From contig CAVYSE010000011.1 in assembly GCA_963771075.1 (NCBI GenBank), positions 141,508-205,507 of the forward strand: a DNA stretch of 64,000 bases. The letters are read 5' to 3'. Source of the DNA: a candidate division FCPU426 bacterium (GTDB lineage: Bacteria; Oederibacteriota; Muellerivitia; Muellerivitales; Muellerivitaceae). Shown one piece after another: positions 5,824-41,739 of the stretch (position 1 is the first letter of the stretch; each line of letters opens with the position of its first letter). The notes beneath the pieces were generated by a model. It was not told the origin of the DNA. It worked only from the letters and a program-made list of their open reading frames with translations, and ran no database searches. The translations under genes and the position numbers were made by a program.

Positions 5824-5921
5824 TCCTTCTCCCCTTGAGGGAGAAGGTTTGGATGAGGGGGATATTTCTCTCGCAAGGCACCCCTCACCCTATCCCTCTC
5901 CCTCAAGGGGCGAGGGAAGCT
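5824..5921. repeat. Pair of GC-rich hairpin-forming repeats (CCTTCTCCC-cttga-GGGAGAAGG and a related CTCCCTC...GAGGGAAG unit)
   Basis: A perfect 9-bp stem lies at 5825-5847. A second imperfect copy lies at about 5894-5919. Both are intergenic between DUF1330 and livM. Confidence 0.4.
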
Positions 5922-5940: not shown

Positions 5941-6897
5941 ATGAAATCAAACCTAATGGGGATATTGATCCTTCTATCGGCCGCCGTGGTGGCGCAGGGT
6001 CTGGCCTATTTACTTCCCCCCTATTTCGCCGAACTTTTCATCTTCGCTCTCATTAACGCCATATTGGCGGTTTCCCTGAACCTGGTGAACGGCCTTTCAG
6101 GCCAATTTTCCTTAGGGCACGCAGGCTTCATGGCGGTAGGGGCATACACAGCCGCTTCGGTTAATGTTTTCCTATTAGGCTCGATGCACGGAACATTTGT
6201 GGGGGATCAATTTTCATTGATTCTCTCATTGTTGGCCGCGGCTGTGGCGAGCGCCATGGCGGGCTATTTGGTAGGGTTGCCTTCCTTAAGACTGAGGGGA
6301 GATTACCTGGCCATCGCTACCTTGGGATTCGGGGAAATTATCCGCGTGGTGATCCTGAATATTCAGGCCGTCGGTGGGGCCAGGGGTTTTATCGGCATTC
6401 CCGGAACGACCACCGCATTCTTGACGGCTTTGATTCTGGCCGCCTGCGTGGTGGCCACCCATCGTTTCGTGCTTTCGACCCACGGACGGGCTTTGTTAGC
6501 CATTCGGGAAAATGAGATCGCGGCAGAGGCAATGGGGGTCAATACCACACGCTTTAAAGTCCAGGCTTTTGTGGTTTCCTCGGCGGTGGCGGGTGTGGCA
6601 GGGGGGCTATTCGCCCATTACCTTTCCTTTATCAATCCCAGTTCCTTTGATTTCATGAAATCGGTGGAGATCGTGATCATGGTGGTCTTGGGGGGAATGG
6701 GCTCGGTTTCGGGCTCCATCCTGGCGGCCTTCATCATCACCTTTTTGCCCGAAGCTTTGCGGCCCCTTCAGCAAGTGACAGGAGTGGATTTGAGGATGGT
6801 GATCTATTCGCTCAGCTTGATTTTGATGATGCTTTTACGGCCCAAAGGCATGTTTGGCCGCAAGGAGCTGTGGCAGATGTTTCAAAGAAAGACTTAA
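5941..6897 (+). CDS. livM: Branched-chain amino-acid ABC transporter permease LivM
   Basis: Motifs GQFSLGHAGFMAVGAYTAA and GDYLAIATLGFGEIIR are typical of LivM. Polytopic membrane protein. Confidence 0.85.
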   Translation: MKSNLMGILILLSAAVVAQGLAYLLPPYFAELFIFALINAILAVSLNLVNGLSGQFSLGHAGFMAVGAYTAASVNVFLLGSMHGTFVGDQFSLILSLLAAAVASAMAGYLVGLPSLRLRGDYLAIATLGFGEIIRVVILNIQAVGGARGFIGIPGTTTAFLTALILAACVVATHRFVLSTHGRALLAIRENEIAAEAMGVNTTRFKVQAFVVSSAVAGVAGGLFAHYLSFINPSSFDFMKSVEIVIMVVLGGMGSVSGSILAAFIITFLPEALRPLQQVTGVDLRMVIYSLSLILMMLLRPKGMFGRKELWQMFQRKT

Positions 6898-31052: not shown

Positions 31053-31841
31053 ATGGGCTTGTTTCCAAGATTGTTTTTGATTTCTCTCTTCTGTGCCAAT
31101 CGGGTATTTGCCGATACTGCTCCCTGGTTTCCCAAAAACATATCAGCGGATGGGGACCGGATCGACAACCTGGTCATATTCTCCTTTTGGGTGACCGGAA
31201 CCTTCTTTGCCATTGTCGTTCTAGCCTTGATCCTCTTTCCTCTTTTCTACCGGTCCCGTCCCGGGCACAAGGCTTTTTATACCCACGGTACGGGATTGTT
31301 CGAACGGATTGTCACCTTCGCCCTGGCTGCGACCGTTTTCGGCGTGATCGACCTGAACGTGATCCACCGTTCCAACGAGGATTACGACGTTCTTTACGGT
31401 AAGCAATACGACCGGGCACAGGCCTTGCGCGTGGAGGTTCAGGGCCGCCAGTTCGAGTGGCGCATCCGTTATTCCATCGACAACAAAACCTTCGGGACAG
31501 TCCAGGACATCACCACCTTAAACCAACTCCATATCCCGGTAAACCGGCCGGTGTTCGTACAGGTCACGTCCGGAGATGTCATCCATAGCTTTTACCTTCC
31601 GAACCTCCGTATCCGACAAGACGCCATGCCGGGCCTAGTGACCCAGGTGGCCTTTGAGGCCAAGGAAAAAGGCCAGTTCACCCTCGCCTGTTCCGAGCTT
31701 TGCGGCCTGGGCCATTACCGGATGAAGGGTTACTTGACAGTGGAGGATGAGGCGGATTTTGATAAGTTTTTAGCCGATGCCGCCAAGGACCGGGACCCCG
31801 ATCCCGCCAACAATTGGGGTTGGGCATGGGAGGAGAGATAA
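31053..31841 (+). CDS. coxB: Cytochrome c oxidase subunit II (CuA-binding)
   Basis: Two N-terminal TM helices. CuA ligands are present in DVIHSF...CSELCGLGHYRM. Confidence 0.85.
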   Translation: MGLFPRLFLISLFCANRVFADTAPWFPKNISADGDRIDNLVIFSFWVTGTFFAIVVLALILFPLFYRSRPGHKAFYTHGTGLFERIVTFALAATVFGVIDLNVIHRSNEDYDVLYGKQYDRAQALRVEVQGRQFEWRIRYSIDNKTFGTVQDITTLNQLHIPVNRPVFVQVTSGDVIHSFYLPNLRIRQDAMPGLVTQVAFEAKEKGQFTLACSELCGLGHYRMKGYLTVEDEADFDKFLADAAKDRDPDPANNWGWAWEER

Positions 31842-31842
31842 C

Positions 31843-33564
31843 ATGAGCGATCACGCGCATTCCGAACCGACTTCCTTTTGGACGAAGTATATTTTCTCGC
31901 TGGACCACAAGGTCATTGGCCGGCAGTTCCTTTTTTACGGGTTGTTCTTCCTCCTGACCGGCGGCATTATGGCCTACCTGATCCGTTGGCAAGTCGCCAA
32001 CCCCTGGACCCCCGCGCCGGTCTTCGGACCGCTGCTGTTCCCCAACTCGGGCGGGGCGGCTACTCCCGAGATCTACACCACCCTGATCACCCTGCACGGG
32101 ACCATCATGATCTTCTTCGCCATCACTCCGATCGCCATCGGGGCACTGGGCAATTTTCTGATCCCGCTCCAGATCGGGGCGAGGGATATGGCCTTCCCCA
32201 TCCTCAACATGCTTTCCTTTTGGCTGATGCCCATCGCCGGCGTACTTTTGATGATGTCCTACTTCGGTGAACAGACGGCCTCCGCCGGCTGGACGGGCTA
32301 TCCCCCTTTGAGTTCCGCCACCTATACGCCCGGCGCCGGTGAAACCCTCTGGGCCCTGGCGGTGGTGATCCTGGGAACTTCCTCCATCATGGGGGGGATC
32401 AATTACGTCACCACTTGCATTAATTTAAGGGCGAAGGGGATGACGATCTGGAAACTTCCCCTTTCGGTCTGGGGGCTCTTCCTCACCGCCGTCCTTAACC
32501 TGGCCTTCGTACCGGTCATCGCGGTGGGTTTGATCATGTTGATCTTCGACCGTACCTGCGGCACCCACTTTTTCACCGGGGTGGCCATCAATCCGGCCCA
32601 AGCCGGCCAGCCTCTTTTATACCAGCATATTTTCTGGGCCTTCGGGCATCCCGAAGTTTACATCCTGATCCTTCCCATCTGGGGCGTGGTGTCGGACGTT
32701 TTGGCGGTGTTCGCGCGAAAGCCGGCTTTCGGTTACAAGCTAACGGCCCTCTCCATGTTCGTCATCACCTGCCTAAGCACGGTGGTCTGGGGCCATCACA
32801 TGTTCATATCCGGCATGAGCCCGGCCATGGGCAAAGCCTTCCAGTCCCTAACCATGCTGATTTCGATCCCCTCTTCCATTTTCTTCTTCAATTGGCTCGC
32901 GACCCTCTGGCGGGGAAACCTGCAATTCAAAACACCCATGCTTTTCGCGATGGGGGTCATTTTCGTATTCGCAATCGGCGGGTTAACAGGGATCCTTTTG
33001 GCTTCCCGCACCATGGATATTTATTTCCACGGGACCTATTTCGTGGTGGCCCACTTCCACTACACGATGGCCATGTCGGTATTCCTGGGTTCCTTCTGCG
33101 CCATCTATTTCTGGTTCCCGAAAATGTTCGGGAGGATGATGAACGAGATTTTGGGGAAATTGCATTTCTGGATCACTTTTGTTTCGGTCAATGTGGTGTT
33201 CCTGGTTATGTTCCGGGTCGGGATGGCGGGCCTGATGCGACGGGTGGCGGACCCCTATGCCTACGAAGTGTTCAAACCCCTGCAGCCCTTGAACCAGATC
33301 ATCACCTACGGGGTCATGGTGATGGGTACGGCCCAATTGATCTTTATTTTCAATTTCTTTTTCAGCATGTTCTTCGGCAAGAAGGCCGAGGATAACCCCT
33401 GGCATGCCGCCACATTGGAATGGACGGTCCCGTCGCCGCCCCCCCACGCGAATTTCGGGGAGGAACTGCCTGTCGTGATCAATGGACCCCATGAGTACGG
33501 CAACCCAGCCGTGAAAGGAAAGGATTTCCTGCTGCAAACAGAACCCGTGCCCGACGCGGGCTAA
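31843..33564 (+). CDS. coxA: Cytochrome c oxidase subunit I (heme-copper oxidase catalytic subunit)
   Basis: 12-TM heme-copper oxidase with conserved His ligands (WAFGHPEVYILILP, HHMF..., VVAHFHY). RBS GGGAGGAGAG precedes ATG 31843, right after the coxB stop. Confidence 0.9.
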   Translation: MSDHAHSEPTSFWTKYIFSLDHKVIGRQFLFYGLFFLLTGGIMAYLIRWQVANPWTPAPVFGPLLFPNSGGAATPEIYTTLITLHGTIMIFFAITPIAIGALGNFLIPLQIGARDMAFPILNMLSFWLMPIAGVLLMMSYFGEQTASAGWTGYPPLSSATYTPGAGETLWALAVVILGTSSIMGGINYVTTCINLRAKGMTIWKLPLSVWGLFLTAVLNLAFVPVIAVGLIMLIFDRTCGTHFFTGVAINPAQAGQPLLYQHIFWAFGHPEVYILILPIWGVVSDVLAVFARKPAFGYKLTALSMFVITCLSTVVWGHHMFISGMSPAMGKAFQSLTMLISIPSSIFFFNWLATLWRGNLQFKTPMLFAMGVIFVFAIGGLTGILLASRTMDIYFHGTYFVVAHFHYTMAMSVFLGSFCAIYFWFPKMFGRMMNEILGKLHFWITFVSVNVVFLVMFRVGMAGLMRRVADPYAYEVFKPLQPLNQIITYGVMVMGTAQLIFIFNFFFSMFFGKKAEDNPWHAATLEWTVPSPPPHANFGEELPVVINGPHEYGNPAVKGKDFLLQTEPVPDAG

Positions 33565-33579
33565 AGACAAAGGCTTTTT

Positions 33580-33664
33580 CCACGAAGTTCACAACGGGCA
33601 CAAAGTAAAAAAATTATTTTGATAAAGCCAAGCATTTACTTTGTGGTCTTTGTGTACTTCGTGG
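33580..33664. repeat. Long imperfect inverted repeat (30-nt arms, 26/30 complementary, 25-nt loop) between coxA and coxC
   Basis: The left arm CCACGAAGTTCACAACGGGCACAAAGTAAA (33580-33609) is complementary to TTTACTTTGTGGTCTTTGTGTACTTCGTGG (33635-33664). Confidence 0.6.
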
Positions 33665-33690
33665 TGAGAAATGTTTTTTAAGGAGAAACA

Positions 33691-34275
33691 ATGAGTTCTG
33701 AAGCAATAAACGAAGAATCCTACACCGGATTTCCCACCGCCCGCATGGGCATGCTGATCTTTTTGATCTCTGAAAGCATGATGTTCGTAACGCTCATCTC
33801 GGGGTATCTGGTGCTTCGCGCCAGTCAAACCGCTTGGCCTCCTGCCAACCAACCCCATTTGAACGTGCTCTTGACCGGCATCAACACTTTTTTCCTGATC
33901 TCCTCCAGCGTAACCTTCCATTTTGCCGAGGTTTATTTTCGCAAAAGCCAAAAAGGAAAGTTCCTGGCCTGGCTTGGAGCGACCATCCTTCTGGGAACGA
34001 CCTTCCTGACCATCCAGGCCTTCGAGTACAGCCGGCTCATGTTCGGGACTTTGAGCCTTTCTTCCTCTACCTACGGTTCGGTTTTCTTCTCCCTGACGGG
34101 GTTTCACGGGCTTCACGTGTTCGTCGGAATATGCCTCCTCAGCCTTATTTTTTGGCGTTTGTCAGCGAACAAGCTTTCCAAAACGGACCACCACTTGGTG
34201 GATAACATCGGGCTTTACTGGCACTTCGTGGACGGGGTATGGATCGTTCTCTTTTCCGTGCTTTACCTTTGGTGA
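33691..34275 (+). CDS. coxC: Cytochrome c oxidase subunit III
   Basis: Conserved ...GFHGLHVFVGICLL...LYWHFVDGVWIVLF motifs and 5 TM helices. RBS AGGAG lies 5 nt upstream. Confidence 0.85.
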   Translation: MSSEAINEESYTGFPTARMGMLIFLISESMMFVTLISGYLVLRASQTAWPPANQPHLNVLLTGINTFFLISSSVTFHFAEVYFRKSQKGKFLAWLGATILLGTTFLTIQAFEYSRLMFGTLSLSSSTYGSVFFSLTGFHGLHVFVGICLLSLIFWRLSANKLSKTDHHLVDNIGLYWHFVDGVWIVLFSVLYLW

Positions 34276-34309: not shown

Positions 34310-34603
34310 ATGATCACCAATCGAAAACATCCGAACCTTTTTTTTGATCATCCTCGAAAACTCAAGGGTTTAATCCTTATTCCATTTTGGGTCTGTTTAG
34401 TCCTGGCTTCGCCGTCGGCCCTTCAAGCTTGTCCTTTTTGCGCGGAAGCGGTCCGAAGGATTAACAACGGCCAACTGTTGGACAGCTATGTGGTGGCGTA
34501 CGTGATATTGGCTTTTATGCCGCTGGTCCTCATCGGCCTCTTTGCTTTGACCCTTTTCCGGTTCCACCGCCGGAAAATCGCAGGACAAACCCCTCGCCAT
34601 TAA
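34310..34603 (+). CDS. Small membrane protein with a CPFC motif (possible oxidase-associated subunit or assembly factor)
   Basis: Signal/TM segment, then ALQACPFCAEAV, then a second TM helix. Lies immediately downstream of coxC. Confidence 0.4.
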   Translation: MITNRKHPNLFFDHPRKLKGLILIPFWVCLVLASPSALQACPFCAEAVRRINNGQLLDSYVVAYVILAFMPLVLIGLFALTLFRFHRRKIAGQTPRH

Positions 34604-38323: not shown

Positions 38324-38645
38324 CCACTCAAGGGATCTTCTCCACCCCCGAGTGGAGGGTTTCCTGGTAATTTTTTATCTTGCTATTTAAAGGAGAAATA
38401 CCTTTTCCACTGGTTTTGTTGAAAAAGCGTTATTCGAAAATTTGAAGAGAATTGATCCGGAATAGAACCGTTGAACAATGAGGGGTTTAAAAGAGTCGAT
38501 AAGGTTGCAGGCCATTTGTCGTGGCAATCATTTTCCTTTGGCGCATCGTTTGTCGAAGAAAATTTGGATGACCAACGTCATAGACAAAGGATTGGGTAGG
38601 CGACAAACTACCACGAATTTATTTTTTTATTTCCAGGGAGGAAAT

Positions 38646-40628
38646 ATGGCACCCGAAAAGCAATCCATCACTTCTTTGCAGAAGGATTCCGCAGTGACAT
38701 TCCCGCCTCCGGCCTCGGTGGCCTCCAAGGCATTTATCGGATCCTTCCAAAAGTACCAGGAAATGTATGACCGCTCCGTGAAGGATTCCCACAAGTTTTG
38801 GCTTGAACAAGCCACGAATGAACTGGTTTGGTTCAAGAAACCCACGAAAACACTGGAGTGGACTTGGGACACCTCCAAAAGGAAAATTCAGCATTCCTGG
38901 TTTTCGGATGGCGAGTTGAATTTATCGGTGAACTGTTTGGACCGTCACCTAGCCAAGAACGGAAATAAGATCGCTATCCTTTGGCAGGGCGAAAAGGATG
39001 AGGAAGTCCGTAAAATCACCTATTCTCAATTGCATGAGATGGTTTGTCGGTTCGCCAACGTGCTGCTTGCTAAGGGGGTCAAGAAAGGGGATCGGATCTG
39101 TGTTTATATGCCGATGATCCCCGAGGCGGCGGTGGCCTTGCTCGCTTGCGCCCGAATCGGTGCCATCCACTCCTTCGTTTTCGGCGGTTTTAGCGCGGAG
39201 GCGTTGAAAACCCGCATTCAGGATTCCCAAAATGTGTTGGCCATCACCACGGACGTGAGCTACCGATCTGGAAAAGCAATCGGATTGAAGAATATTCTTG
39301 ATGAGGCCCTCAAGGAATGCCCTACCATCAAGAACGTCATTGTCTACAAGAGGGGTGACGGAAAGGTCAACATGCAGGCCGGCCGGGACAGCTGGTGGGA
39401 TGAGGAGACCCAAAAGGCCAGTCCCAAGCATGAGGCCCAGCCGATGAACGCGGAAGACCCGCTTTTTATCCTGTATACCTCTGGATCCACTGGAAAACCG
39501 AAAGGGGTCCTTCACACGACCGGCGGTTATATCTTACACGCCGCCCTGAGCCACCGCCTCATTTTCGACTGCCATCCCGAGGACACCTATTGGTGCACTG
39601 CCGACATCGGTTGGGTCACGGGCCACAGTTACATCGTCTATGGCCCCCTGGCCAACGGCGTCACATCGATCATGTTTGAGGGAGTACCCACCTACCCAGA
39701 TTCTGGTAGGTTCTGGCAAGTGATCGCCAAACATAAAGTCACCATCTTTTATACCGCGCCCACCGCGATCCGTTCCCTGATGCGAGAAGGGGAAGAATGG
39801 CCGAAAAAGCACGACTTGAGCTCCTTGCGCATCCTGGGCTCGGTCGGTGAACCAATCAATCCCGAGGCATGGTTGTGGTATCACAGGAACATTGGCCAAA
39901 GCCGCTGTCCTATCGTCGATACCTGGTGGCAGACGGAAACGGGTGGTATTTTGATCACCCCACTTCCGGGTGCCCATACTTTAAAACCTGGGAGCGCCTC
40001 TCTTCCCTTTTTCGGGGTGGAGCCCATCGTAGTGGATAATGACGGGAAAGAATGCGCCAGAAACGAAGGCGGAAAACTGTGCATTAAGAAGCCCTGGCCG
40101 GGCATGGCCCGCACCATGTGGGGGGATCACGAACGTTTCATCGACACCTATTTCACCGCTTTCCCCAACCTTTATTACACAGGGGACGGTTGCCGCGTCG
40201 ATCAGGACGGAGATTACTGGCTCATGGGCCGGGTGGATGATGTGGTGAACATCTCTGGACACCGTATCGGGACGGCGGAAGTGGAAAGCGCGCTTGTTTC
40301 CCATCCCAAGGTTTCGGAAGCGGCGGTGGTGGGCTATCCCCACGACATCAAAGGATCGGCCCTTTACGCTTACGTGACCGTGAAGGAGGGCGTGACGCCG
40401 TCAGATGAGCTGAAGAAAGAACTGGTTCAGCATGTGCGCAAGGAAATCGGTCCCATTGCCCAACCGGACAAGATCCAGTTCGCGGAGGCGATGCCCAAGA
40501 CCCGCAGCGGCAAAATCATGCGCCGGATCTTGAGGAAAATAGCAGAGAATGAAACGGGTAATCTGGGCGATATTTCCACCCTGGCCGACCCGTCCGTCGT
40601 GGAAAGGCTGATCCAAGGAAAGCAATAA
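38646..40628 (+). CDS. acs: Acetyl-CoA synthetase (AMP-forming)
   Basis: The N-terminus ...[16 protein letters not shown]..., AMP-binding motif [11 protein letters not shown] and C-terminal ...[17 protein letters not shown] (acetylatable Lys motif) are present. RBS GGGAGG precedes ATG 38646. Confidence 0.9.
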
Positions 40629-40654: not shown

Positions 40655-40697
40655 TAAAAAAAGCAGGCTGGTTTAAAAACCAGCCTGCTTTTTTTGA
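40655..40697. terminator. Bidirectional rho-independent terminator between acs and the convergent DRTGG gene
   Basis: Perfect 11-bp stem GCAGGCTGGTT-taaaa-AACCAGCCTGC, flanked by an A-run upstream and a T-run downstream. Confidence 0.85.
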
Positions 40698-40704
40698 CTA
40701 AACC

Positions 40705-41739
40705 CTACTTGAACTTGGCCATGTCCAGATGGGACTGCACAAACTGGGTGATCATCGCGACCTTGCCCGGGTCCTGGTGGGTCAAGAGGGGTTCCAAACC
40801 GTCCAGTTGCTTGGCGGTATGGAAAGTATCGGTGGAAACCAATAAAAGCGGTATATTGCGCTGGTTGGCCAAGGAAAGCACATCCGGCGAGGGAAGGATA
40901 TTGTTCGTTAGGATCACTCCGGAGGTGCCTCCCTCCAGGGCGGCCAGGATCATATCGCTCCGGTCCCCGCTGGTAACGACCAATTTTTTATCCTTATTGA
41001 AGAGGGTAAGCCTCCTGGCGCTGTCCACGGACATGGCTCCAATAATGATGTGGCCCACCTCATTGCCCAATCCTCCTTCTCCGGCGAGGGTTTTCGAGAA
41101 AAGCACCTCGGACAGGTAGGCCATAGTGAAATGGTTCAGTTCGGGTTTCAAAGGCAAGATCCCCAGGATGGGAATACCCAACTGGTTGATCTGGGGCAAA
41201 TAGGTCGTTTTGAAATCCTCCAGGTCGTGCACCTTGTTGAGGATGACGCCCTTAAAACGAACGTCCTGGATCGGCAGGCATTTTTTGATGCAGACCAGGT
41301 CGTCCGCGATGGAACCCTCCGAACCGCTCACCACGAGGATCAACTCCCCGCCGAGGGCTTTGGCGACGGAGACGGCGTCCAGGTGCACGGACATTCCGTA
41401 ATTCAAGTGCATGCCGCCTTCCACGAAAAGTAGTTCCTTCCCGGCCCCGGCGTGGGTGGCCACCTCGCGCAGTTTTTCAGTGGTGGTCGCCGCGTCGTAT
41501 TTGTATTTCAACTTGGCGTGCTCGAAGCCGATGGAGATGTCTTCCGGGTTTTCATGAAGGTTCCAGAGGTGGGTCAGCAGGGCGGAATCGTAGTCCCAAA
41601 GGCGTTTTTTGTGATAGATCAACCGGTCGCCGAAGGGTTTCATGTAACCGGACTGTTGTCCTAGCGCGGCGGCAAGGCCGATGATCACTCCCGTTTTGCC
41701 GGAACTTTTGCTGCTTGATCCAATGACGAGTGTTTTCAT
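40705..41739 (-). CDS. Standalone BioD-like (AAA_26) plus DRTGG domain protein, homologous to the N-terminal regulatory domain of long phosphotransacetylases
   Basis: N-terminal P-loop-like MKTLVIGSSSKSSGKTGVIIGLAAAL. C-terminal DRTGG-type segment VVTSGDRSDMILAALEGGTSGVILTN. No PTA catalytic domain. The stop overlaps the start of the downstream ACD gene. Confidence 0.75.
   Translation of the reverse strand: MKTLVIGSSSKSSGKTGVIIGLAAALGQQSGYMKPFGDRLIYHKKRLWDYDSALLTHLWNLHENPEDISIGFEHAKLKYKYDAATTTEKLREVATHAGAGKELLFVEGGMHLNYGMSVHLDAVSVAKALGGELILVVSGSEGSIADDLVCIKKCLPIQDVRFKGVILNKVHDLEDFKTTYLPQINQLGIPILGILPLKPELNHFTMAYLSEVLFSKTLAGEGGLGNEVGHIIIGAMSVDSARRLTLFNKDKKLVVTSGDRSDMILAALEGGTSGVILTNNILPSPDVLSLANQRNIPLLLVSTDTFHTAKQLDGLEPLLTHQDPGKVAMITQFVQSHLDMAKFK

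Follow-up and report, generated by a model that had tools for sequence, protein, structure and literature searches.

Several described systems come close to the element that we report here. Cyanobacterial STRRs are intergenic, dispersed arrays of tandem 7-nt units, in which the units are lineage-specific and the copy number is variable and often larger than the three discussed below; they are not known to be defined by paired inverted arrays or by fixed CCAC/GTGG ends. RNase III stems, such as the intergenic sites of phage T7 and the stalks of rRNA operons, extend over at least two helical turns between cistrons and are conserved at orthologous positions.

REPs, short extragenic repeats mobilized by RAYT (Y1) transposases, are present both singly and as inverted doublets. 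The REP unit is an imperfect palindrome of 20-40 bp (PMC3733652, PMC3116915) with an unpaired GTAG or CGTC tag (PMC3733652). REP doublets, together with a less conserved spacer, form hairpins in single-stranded DNA or mRNA (PMC3116915). REPs are mostly found between unidirectional genes and downstream of coding regions, where they are plausibly transcribed, and their sequences are specific to a species or genome (PMC3733652). Correia inverted repeats (CREE/NEMIS) of Neisseria, when co-transcribed, give a long stem to which RNase III can bind or which it can cleave, and the expression of neighboring genes is altered (PMC2649163, PMC10969869).

The DNA analyzed here (64 kb in total, hereafter the window) comes from a candidate division FCPU426 bacterium and carries a long hairpin in the gap between coxA and coxC. 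In our reading this hairpin is probably a copy of a dispersed hairpin repeat that was inserted in the coxA-coxC spacer. The features of the region are the following:

31053-31841, + strand: coxB (COX2), with a match to Pfam COX2
31777-33564, + strand: coxA, cytochrome c oxidase subunit I, given as the longest ORF (Pfam COX1, E = 7e-143)
33565-33579, + strand: left flank of the element, AGACAAAGGCTTTTT
33580-33609, + strand: left arm, a CCAC head and three tandem units with a 9-nt period
33610-33634, + strand: loop AAAATTATTTTGATAAAGCCAAGCA, 25 nt and AT-rich
33635-33664, + strand: right arm, with units CTTTGTG (33639-33645), CTTTGTG (33648-33654), and CTTCGTG (33657-33663) and a closing GTGG
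33665-33667, + strand: TGA right after GTGG, the commonest right-hand flank in the repeat family
33674-33690, + strand: native coxC leader, consisting of a T6 run, the Shine-Dalgarno sequence AAGGAG (33680-33685), and the spacer to the ATG
33691-34275, + strand: coxC, cytochrome c oxidase subunit III, 194 aa (Pfam COX3, E = 2.5e-31)

Reading of the sequence and a repeat search agree on an inverted repeat with arms at 33580-33609 (CCACGAAGTTCACAACGGGCACAAAGTAAA) and 33635-33664 (TTTACTTTGTGGTCTTTGTGTACTTCGTGG), each 30 nt long, 87% (26/30) complementary and 25 nt apart, within a coxA-coxC gap of 126 nt (33565-33690). The arm length, pairing, loop, and gap size given in a preliminary description are thus all reproduced, as is the position of the hairpin ahead of the coxC ribosome-binding site, with AAGGAG at 33680-33685 and the coxC ATG at 33691. 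Gene calls on identical contigs (L001) make coxA 573 aa long, placing its start near 31843; its TAA stop occupies 33562-33564. The units of the left arm are CACGAAG (33581-33587), CACAACG (33590-33596), and CACAAAG (33599-33605), the middle one being degenerate, and those of the right arm, read on the - strand (CCACGAAGtaCACAAAGacCACAAAG), are CACGAAG, CACAAAG, and CACAAAG. The hairpin opens with CCAC (33580-33583) and closes with GTGG (33661-33664). On its left, TTT is found where the TCA typical of the family would precede CCAC, and the left flank resembles that of a related contig, L329 (AAAGACTTTTA; a 10-nt similarity, p about 0.003).

Two small features adjoin the element. The last codons of coxA (33541-33561) form a GC-rich hairpin (CCCGTGCCCGACGCGGG) that ends just before the stop codon. 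It has a near-perfect 7-bp stem in L006 (CCCGCGCCCGGCGCGGG), is recognizable in L004, L326, L008, and L010, and is weaker in L329; from it to the start of the repeat there are 18 nt in the window, 21 nt in L329, and 32 nt in L010. This coxA-end hairpin could reflect a coding constraint or could be part of the site's appeal for insertion. Directly after coxC lies a 97-aa ORF (34310-34603) with no Pfam match, and in L006/L007, L011, and L014, too, coxC is followed by a small ORF (73-84 aa). The 97-aa ORF may be a small fourth oxidase subunit.

RNA folding, which the preliminary description had recommended as a check, gave -40.4 kcal/mol for the spacer (z = -5.5), a value equaled by none of 200 shuffles. 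For a 136-nt region the two strands gave z-scores of -4.5 (+) and -4.2 (-). The stem itself, with one G.U pair, reaches -40.9 kcal/mol on the sense strand and -33 kcal/mol on the other, a modest advantage for the former. Only one inverted repeat of comparable length occurs elsewhere in the 64 kb, and neither arm recurs there within 3 mismatches; the check for multiple copies therefore finds the element to be single-copy within the window.

The window contains further hairpins of other kinds. The second long one, at 5824-5917, has 37-nt arms that are 84% complementary around a 20-nt loop (TCCTTCTCCCCTTGAGGGAGAAGG...CCCTCTCCCTCAAGGGGCGAGGGA) and is intergenic, preceding an ORF at 5941. Its 17-mer CCCTCTCCCTCAAGGGG recurs at 42 loci of viral contigs, in several cases as inverted pairs lying close together, and because of this recurrence the hairpin probably represents another dispersed hairpin repeat family. 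A palindrome that is perfect over 19 nt and tailed by an A-run and a T-run (AAAAAAAGCAGGCTGGTTT/AAACCAGCCTGCTTTTTTT) occupies 40656-40695, where the ORFs 38478-40628 (+) and 40705-41739 (-) converge; its appearance is that of a bidirectional intrinsic terminator.

The design of the coxA-coxC hairpin is shared by a large set of repeats, the three-unit CAC-NN-AG family. Its members consist of two inverted arms, each with three tandem 7-nt CAC-NN-AG units spaced 8-10 nt apart; the ends are CCAC...GTGG, usually tcaCCAC...GTGGtga, and the enclosed loop varies in length and sequence. Viral contigs were scanned with a generic pattern, CCACVRAGN{1,3}CACVRAGN{1,3}CACVRAG, and with a pattern for the flavor of the window, CCACRAAGNNCACRANGNNCACRAAG. 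The generic pattern was found at at least 120 loci and the window-flavor pattern likewise at at least 120. At uniform base composition, the per-position probability of the latter is about 2e-12, so that at most about one match would be expected by chance in the viral collection, the size of which was assumed.

All numbers given for the family depend on the search patterns that defined the sample. Among the matches listed, exactly three units were present in 349 of 368 arms, and the variable dinucleotide was internally uniform in 236 of these 368 (about 32 expected). A single flavor extended across all arms in 24 of the 43 loci with at least three arms, a figure that is again conditioned by the search patterns. 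Many of the matches listed form inverted pairs 5-250 nt apart, with the ends tcaCCAC...GTGGtga or ttgaaCCAC...GTGGttcaa; the flanks of 64 paired arms among them show TCA on the left in 30 and TGA on the right in 27. Within 300 nt, a strict partner is present for about 116 arms and missing for about 268 (about two thirds), which means that singlets and doublets coexist. By a crude ORF call, 53% of the copies are intergenic, against about 16% of non-coding sequence, and 19 of 23 lie between co-directional ORFs; a minority of the pattern matches are coding tandem repeats. Portal, capsid, and Mu-F proteins mark some of the carrier contigs as genuine phages. A microsatellite-like slippage array was considered and ruled out, as 95% of the arms have exactly three units.

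Does the window element belong here? An nhmmer profile trained solely on 236 viral arms was run on the 64-kb window. Its best match was the right arm (33668-33638, - strand; E = 2.5e-6, 23.5 bits), its second-best the left arm (33576-33606; E = 0.022, 11 bits), and nothing significant was found in the rest of the window, where the next match had E = 0.17. With its three-unit arms, its CCAC/GTGG ends, and its recognition by the profile, the window hairpin is, on sequence grounds, a member of the family. Multi-copy status rests on relatives and phage contigs, as the source genome was covered through the 64-kb window only: L010, for instance, carries 2 copies in 1.1 kb, and L143, L147, and L162 have 5-6 flavor-pattern arms each.

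These results also settle the fate of the simplest alternative, a chance palindrome without history or function. Being single-copy in the window is what would speak for it. Against it stand the shuffles, none of which folds equally well, and the three-unit periodicity and CCAC/GTGG+TGA ends, which match a profile built from unrelated contigs at the E-value given above. Together with the family pattern matches, that profile refutes the chance reading, to which we assign practically no probability. The preliminary description had proposed that a hairpin both unconserved and single-copy would be a chance palindrome. This rule misleads: the hairpin turned out to be single-copy within the window and unconserved in sequence, and yet it is clearly no such thing.

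Further arrangements of the arms were seen in phage contigs. Single arms often fill a short co-directional spacer (L033 7588-7613 and 11880-11905; L019, L022, L028, and L032), where the order is stop codon, CCAC, three units, and start codon. Ordinary genes, for example a capsid gene (L234 1421-3793), are enclosed by two single arms in inverted orientation, 0.3-3 kb from each other. In some hairpins (L147 13456-13540, L185 8184-8242, and L065 12016-12084) the two arms differ in flavor and each is internally uniform, as with CACAAAG x3 opposite CTTCGTG x3. Since each arm of these mixed-flavor hairpins is uniform, the three units of one arm must change together, and point mutation and drift do not explain such an arm-wide change. 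A sister design has CACAGAT/CACGGAT (or CGCAGAT) units with period 10 and the same CCAC/GTGG ends as the CACNNAG family. This sister design fills a further variable spacer in the cox cluster (L339 2311-2450 and L011 3815-3990) and is also nested in the loops of some viral CACNNAG hairpins (L070 1404-1583 and L132 229-406).

The family is apparently undescribed, being absent from Rfam, from the open-access literature searched, and from plasmid and cultured-phage collections. At the gathering threshold, Rfam gave no match in the window; in E-value mode, the window copy and eight other members matched eukaryotic miRNA-precursor models only, well under the threshold (28.5 bits against 95). BLAST searches with a clean family member returned no match in PLSDB (72,556 plasmids) and no real match in INPHARED (50,697 cultured-phage records). 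A full-text search of the open-access literature (8 million papers) for the repeat strings gave nothing relevant, and a class with tandem-unit arms is not described in the REP/REPIN/MITE reviews consulted.

The orthologous spacers of relatives are the key to the history of the site. The CoxC protein (P0001) occurs in identical form in public assemblies, and L001-L003 equal the window across the compared coxA-coxC region. Among 5.8 billion proteins only six further close relatives of CoxC were found, four of them 87-90% and two about 65% identical; the nearest representative in the genome collection is L246, a MAG labeled candidate division FCPU426. Empty spacers are those of L004/L326 plus nine further contigs (33 nt), of L006/L246 (23 nt), and of L008/L009 (32 nt); in L013 the spacer measures 61 nt and contains a small unrelated hairpin only. 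A long hairpin is present in the spacers of L010 (171 nt), L329 (145 nt), L011/L340 (191 nt), and L339 (194 nt). The comparison with orthologues called for earlier thus reveals four related lineages with compact 23-61-nt spacers and without the hairpin, which is therefore not conserved in cox operons.

In a neighbor-joining tree of coxC, which rests on 585 nt and is short and weakly resolved, each apparent sister pair consists of one occupied and one empty lineage. Because occupied and empty spacers alternate among relatives, the window hairpin does not count as a conserved part of the operon, nor is it a conserved cox control element. The spacer of the window is about 90-100 nt longer than those of the nearest hairpin-less relatives, and a TTTT(T)AAGGAG block is common to relatives with and without hairpin. 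Judged against the empty sites, the window hairpin has the appearance of a piece inserted ahead of a TTTTTTAAGGAG leader that stayed intact. Among the options that the preliminary description had offered, that of a miniature inverted-repeat or REP-like insertion is the one backed by the data, namely, by the absence from four orthologous spacers and by the abundant dispersed family.

The T-rich leader has to be weighed in another respect, as it could belong to an intra-operon terminator or attenuator between coxA and coxC. The stem is very stable, and a T6 run (33674-33679) begins 9 nt past it, so that the earlier remark that there is no T-run is not literally correct. The run is no terminator tail, however: it is native to the coxC leader, because hairpin-less relatives also carry a T-run before the ribosome-binding site (in L004, TTTTTTTTAAGGAG). 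In addition, an AT-rich 30-bp stem with a 25-nt loop falls outside the usual geometry of intrinsic terminators, in line with the preliminary description, which had called it far longer than a standard one. Most family members have no T-run after GTGGtga, and a promoter/terminator consensus scan of 33200-34000 found nothing above chance. We consider a terminator highly improbable.

The occupied spacers have a common design and not a common sequence. The window combines CACGAAG, CACAACG, and CACAAAG with period 9; L010 has CACCAAG with period 8; L329 has CACAGAG with period 8; L011 has CACAGAG and CACGGAG; and L339 has CACCAAG with period 9. The loop of the window copy has no significant similarity to the loops of the other cox-site copies. 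Family members thus fill the coxA-coxC spacer of five groups, lineages or strains (window, L010, L329, L011/L340, and L339). In L329 the copy in the cox spacer is the only one in 12.7 kb, just as the window copy is the only one in 64 kb. Random insertion does not easily explain the repeated occupancy of one spacer, which is the main unexplained point of the insertion reading; an account of it has to invoke a preference for the site, renewed insertion or conversion where older copies lie, or selection for occupancy.

The last of these leads to an alternative in which the hairpin is a selected element of the cox mRNA. The stem in the coxBAC transcript would be cut by RNase III or would block 3'-to-5' exonucleases, thereby giving the coxBA and coxC segments unequal stabilities and tuning the stoichiometry of subunits I/II versus III, as the preliminary description had suggested, and the family would be the raw material that was recruited. 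The occupancy of the spacer in five groups with different flavors fits this idea, as does the fact that the window and L329 copies stand alone in 64 kb and 12.7 kb and that L339 and L340 carry different elements at a site occupied in both. Every cox-site copy folds into a stable RNA stem (-40.4, -47.9, -57.6, and -28.7 kcal/mol), and that of the window is somewhat stabler on the sense strand. Precedents are available in the Correia elements bound or cleaved by RNase III (PMC2649163, PMC10969869) and in the ERIC and REP sequences that affect mRNA decay (PMC3184786). However, compact 23-61-nt spacers in presumably functional operons are found in four lineages, and in the weakly resolved 585-nt tree each of these appears as sister to an occupied lineage. 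Other spacers of the L339 cluster are occupied too, so that occupancy may reflect local element density. Nor is there a preference in the family for G.U over A.C on the sense strand: the L329 stem has two A.C mismatches and no G.U pair on that strand, and in 19 hairpins oriented by crude ORF calls, 15 G.U stood against 22 A.C (p = 0.32, no bias). On those 19 hairpins, the test thus gave no signal of RNA-level selection for the family. Since a sense-strand G.U bias is absent, the family behaves, as far as its sequences tell, as a symmetric DNA repeat, and nothing indicates strand-specific maintenance at the RNA level. We regard a selected cox mRNA element as unlikely.

The same symmetry is compatible with an array that acts at the level of DNA, in which three sites per inverted arm would be bound by a putative repressor, nucleoid protein, or recombinase of host or phage and would serve as an operator or roadblock for coxC. 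The strict three units per arm (349/368), the invariant CAC and AG, the two variable positions that are uniform per arm and often per contig, the single arms that commonly fill short spacers in phage contigs, and the lack of an RNA-strand bias together resemble the logic of recognition sites that co-vary with a genome-specific protein. On the other side, a period of 8-10 nt is less than a helical turn and unusual among known operator arrays, and no candidate binding protein has been put forward. The location, the spacer of a housekeeping-oxidase operon that is empty in sister lineages, argues against a dedicated cox regulator. For the window hairpin we consider such a binding array very unlikely.

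Returning to the insertion of a dispersed repeat, the relatives give a view of how the site turns over. In L010, two copies flank coxC, with arms that are 93-96% identical and loops that are unrelated. The loop of the L329 copy is similar to that of the L010 copy downstream of coxC (p = 0.0005), and the arm flavors of the two differ. The match therefore connects related elements at non-orthologous positions, and it follows that arms and loops have different histories. The idea that the loops are ancestral local spacer was rejected, as the only strongly significant loop similarity joins different positions (L329 and the downstream L010 copy, L010b); loop similarities to the empty L004 spacer (p 0.0075-0.03) miss the cut-off of 0.005.

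A second case concerns strains of the same species. L339 and L340 have identical CoxC proteins, and between L339 and L011/L340 the flanking genes are 94-99% identical, whereas the spacers are only about 45% identical and contain different elements. The TTGAACCAC end of the L339 element supplies the coxA stop codon. Compared with L011, the last 200 nt of coxA in L339 (1098-1298) have an identity of 0.91, against 0.96-0.99 further upstream. This dip suggests that a recombination tract may have carried the alternative element in, which puts recombinational import of a divergent allele on a par with local transposition. That the elements descended vertically, with compensatory drift, is unlikely, since strains of one species differ in carrying elements unrelated to each other and since the units change all at once.

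We looked for the traces of a transposition mechanism as well. No target-site duplication was read beside the window copy, and none was seen by eye in a handful of family flanks (from 23 hairpins and from 40 entries of paired arms, each hairpin giving two); the flanking TCA and TGA prolong the inverted repeat itself. As to a mobilizing enzyme, 20 ORFs on repeat-rich contigs were without a transposase domain; those enclosed by arm pairs 0.3-6 kb apart (10 ORFs) were capsid, Mu-F, glycosyltransferase, DUF6527, or unknown ORFs, with no transposase among them. As far as these 10 ORFs tell, the arms are not the ends of a larger transposon, the enclosed ORFs being ordinary phage genes.

From these observations we infer the following course of events. 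The family would spread in the manner of REPINs or MITEs, as non-autonomous DNA moved in trans. Because no target-site duplications were present on the handful inspected and the hairpin is symmetric, a single-strand (HUH/Y1-type) or recombinational route would fit better than a DDE transposase. The window copy, lying within the coxBAC transcription unit, would for that reason be transcribed and form a stem of roughly 30 bp. This stem could serve as an RNase III substrate or as a barrier to 3'-exonucleases and so uncouple coxC from coxBA. Any such effect on the cox mRNA is regarded as a side effect of the insertion and not as the cause of its existence.

A bolder proposal, rather doubtful in our own estimation, goes beyond insertion. 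Fixed triplets of a 7-nt recognition unit would represent a new class of small mobile or templated DNA elements, with variable bases that are set genome-wise and co-evolve with a putative protein or RNA guide. The FCPU426 coxA-coxC spacer would be a preferred or selected landing site, at which the hairpin would have been put to use as a stem for the processing or stability of the oxidase-operon RNA. A co-evolving recognition unit would explain why arms are uniform per genome and why loops are shared across genomes with different arms.

For annotation, the hairpin is to be treated as a polymorphic repeat insertion that lengthens a compact spacer and not as a conserved cox regulator. With very many copies in uncultured bacteria and phages, the family keeps to an unusually strict architecture: three units per arm, fixed ends, and flavors specific to a genome or contig. 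Such repeats generate spurious ORFs and assembly breaks and mark strain-level variation, and this family may reveal a new mobilization or recognition system. A single operon spacer that is repeatedly occupied by different members offers a tractable case for asking whether hosts recruit hairpins for mRNA processing.

How, then, does the element compare with the systems introduced at the beginning? It resembles REPs and REPINs in that the window copy is an inverted doublet and that the family comprises singlets and doublets, variable loops, intergenic enrichment, and contig-specific flavors, with no target-site duplication on a handful of flanks. Unlike a REP, a single arm is non-palindromic (dG 0 to -1.8 kcal/mol) and repeats its 7-nt unit directly, three times over; the end that does not vary, CCAC/GTGG, is base-paired in the stem, with neither GTAG nor CGTC. 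As a further difference, the CAC-NN-AG family is also common in phage contigs, and no RAYT was identified among the ORFs sampled. With STRRs it shares dispersed 7-nt tandem units; it differs in being nearly absent from mostly cyanobacterial genome loci, 1.33 Mb of which held only 1 match.

In size and position (a stem of about 30 bp with 4 mismatches), the window stem is like an RNase III stem, and the inverted single arms that bracket whole genes in phage contigs are reminiscent of rRNA stalks. Unlike the T7 and rRNA sites, the cox-spacer element is polymorphic, and strand-specific conservation is absent. MITEs and Correia elements measure about 60-200 bp and end in inverted repeats of about 26-30 nt; they are matched by the window arms (30 nt, 26/30), by the intergenic, operon-internal insertion, and by the presence/absence polymorphism between strains. 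MITEs are, however, defined by target-site duplication and a matching autonomous IS, neither of which was seen here (flanks by eye and 10 ORFs). A conserved core that includes an IHF site is typical of Correia elements, whereas the loops of the CAC-NN-AG family are mostly unrelated between copies. In functional terms, the Correia element is the nearest precedent for an operon-internal copy such as this one.
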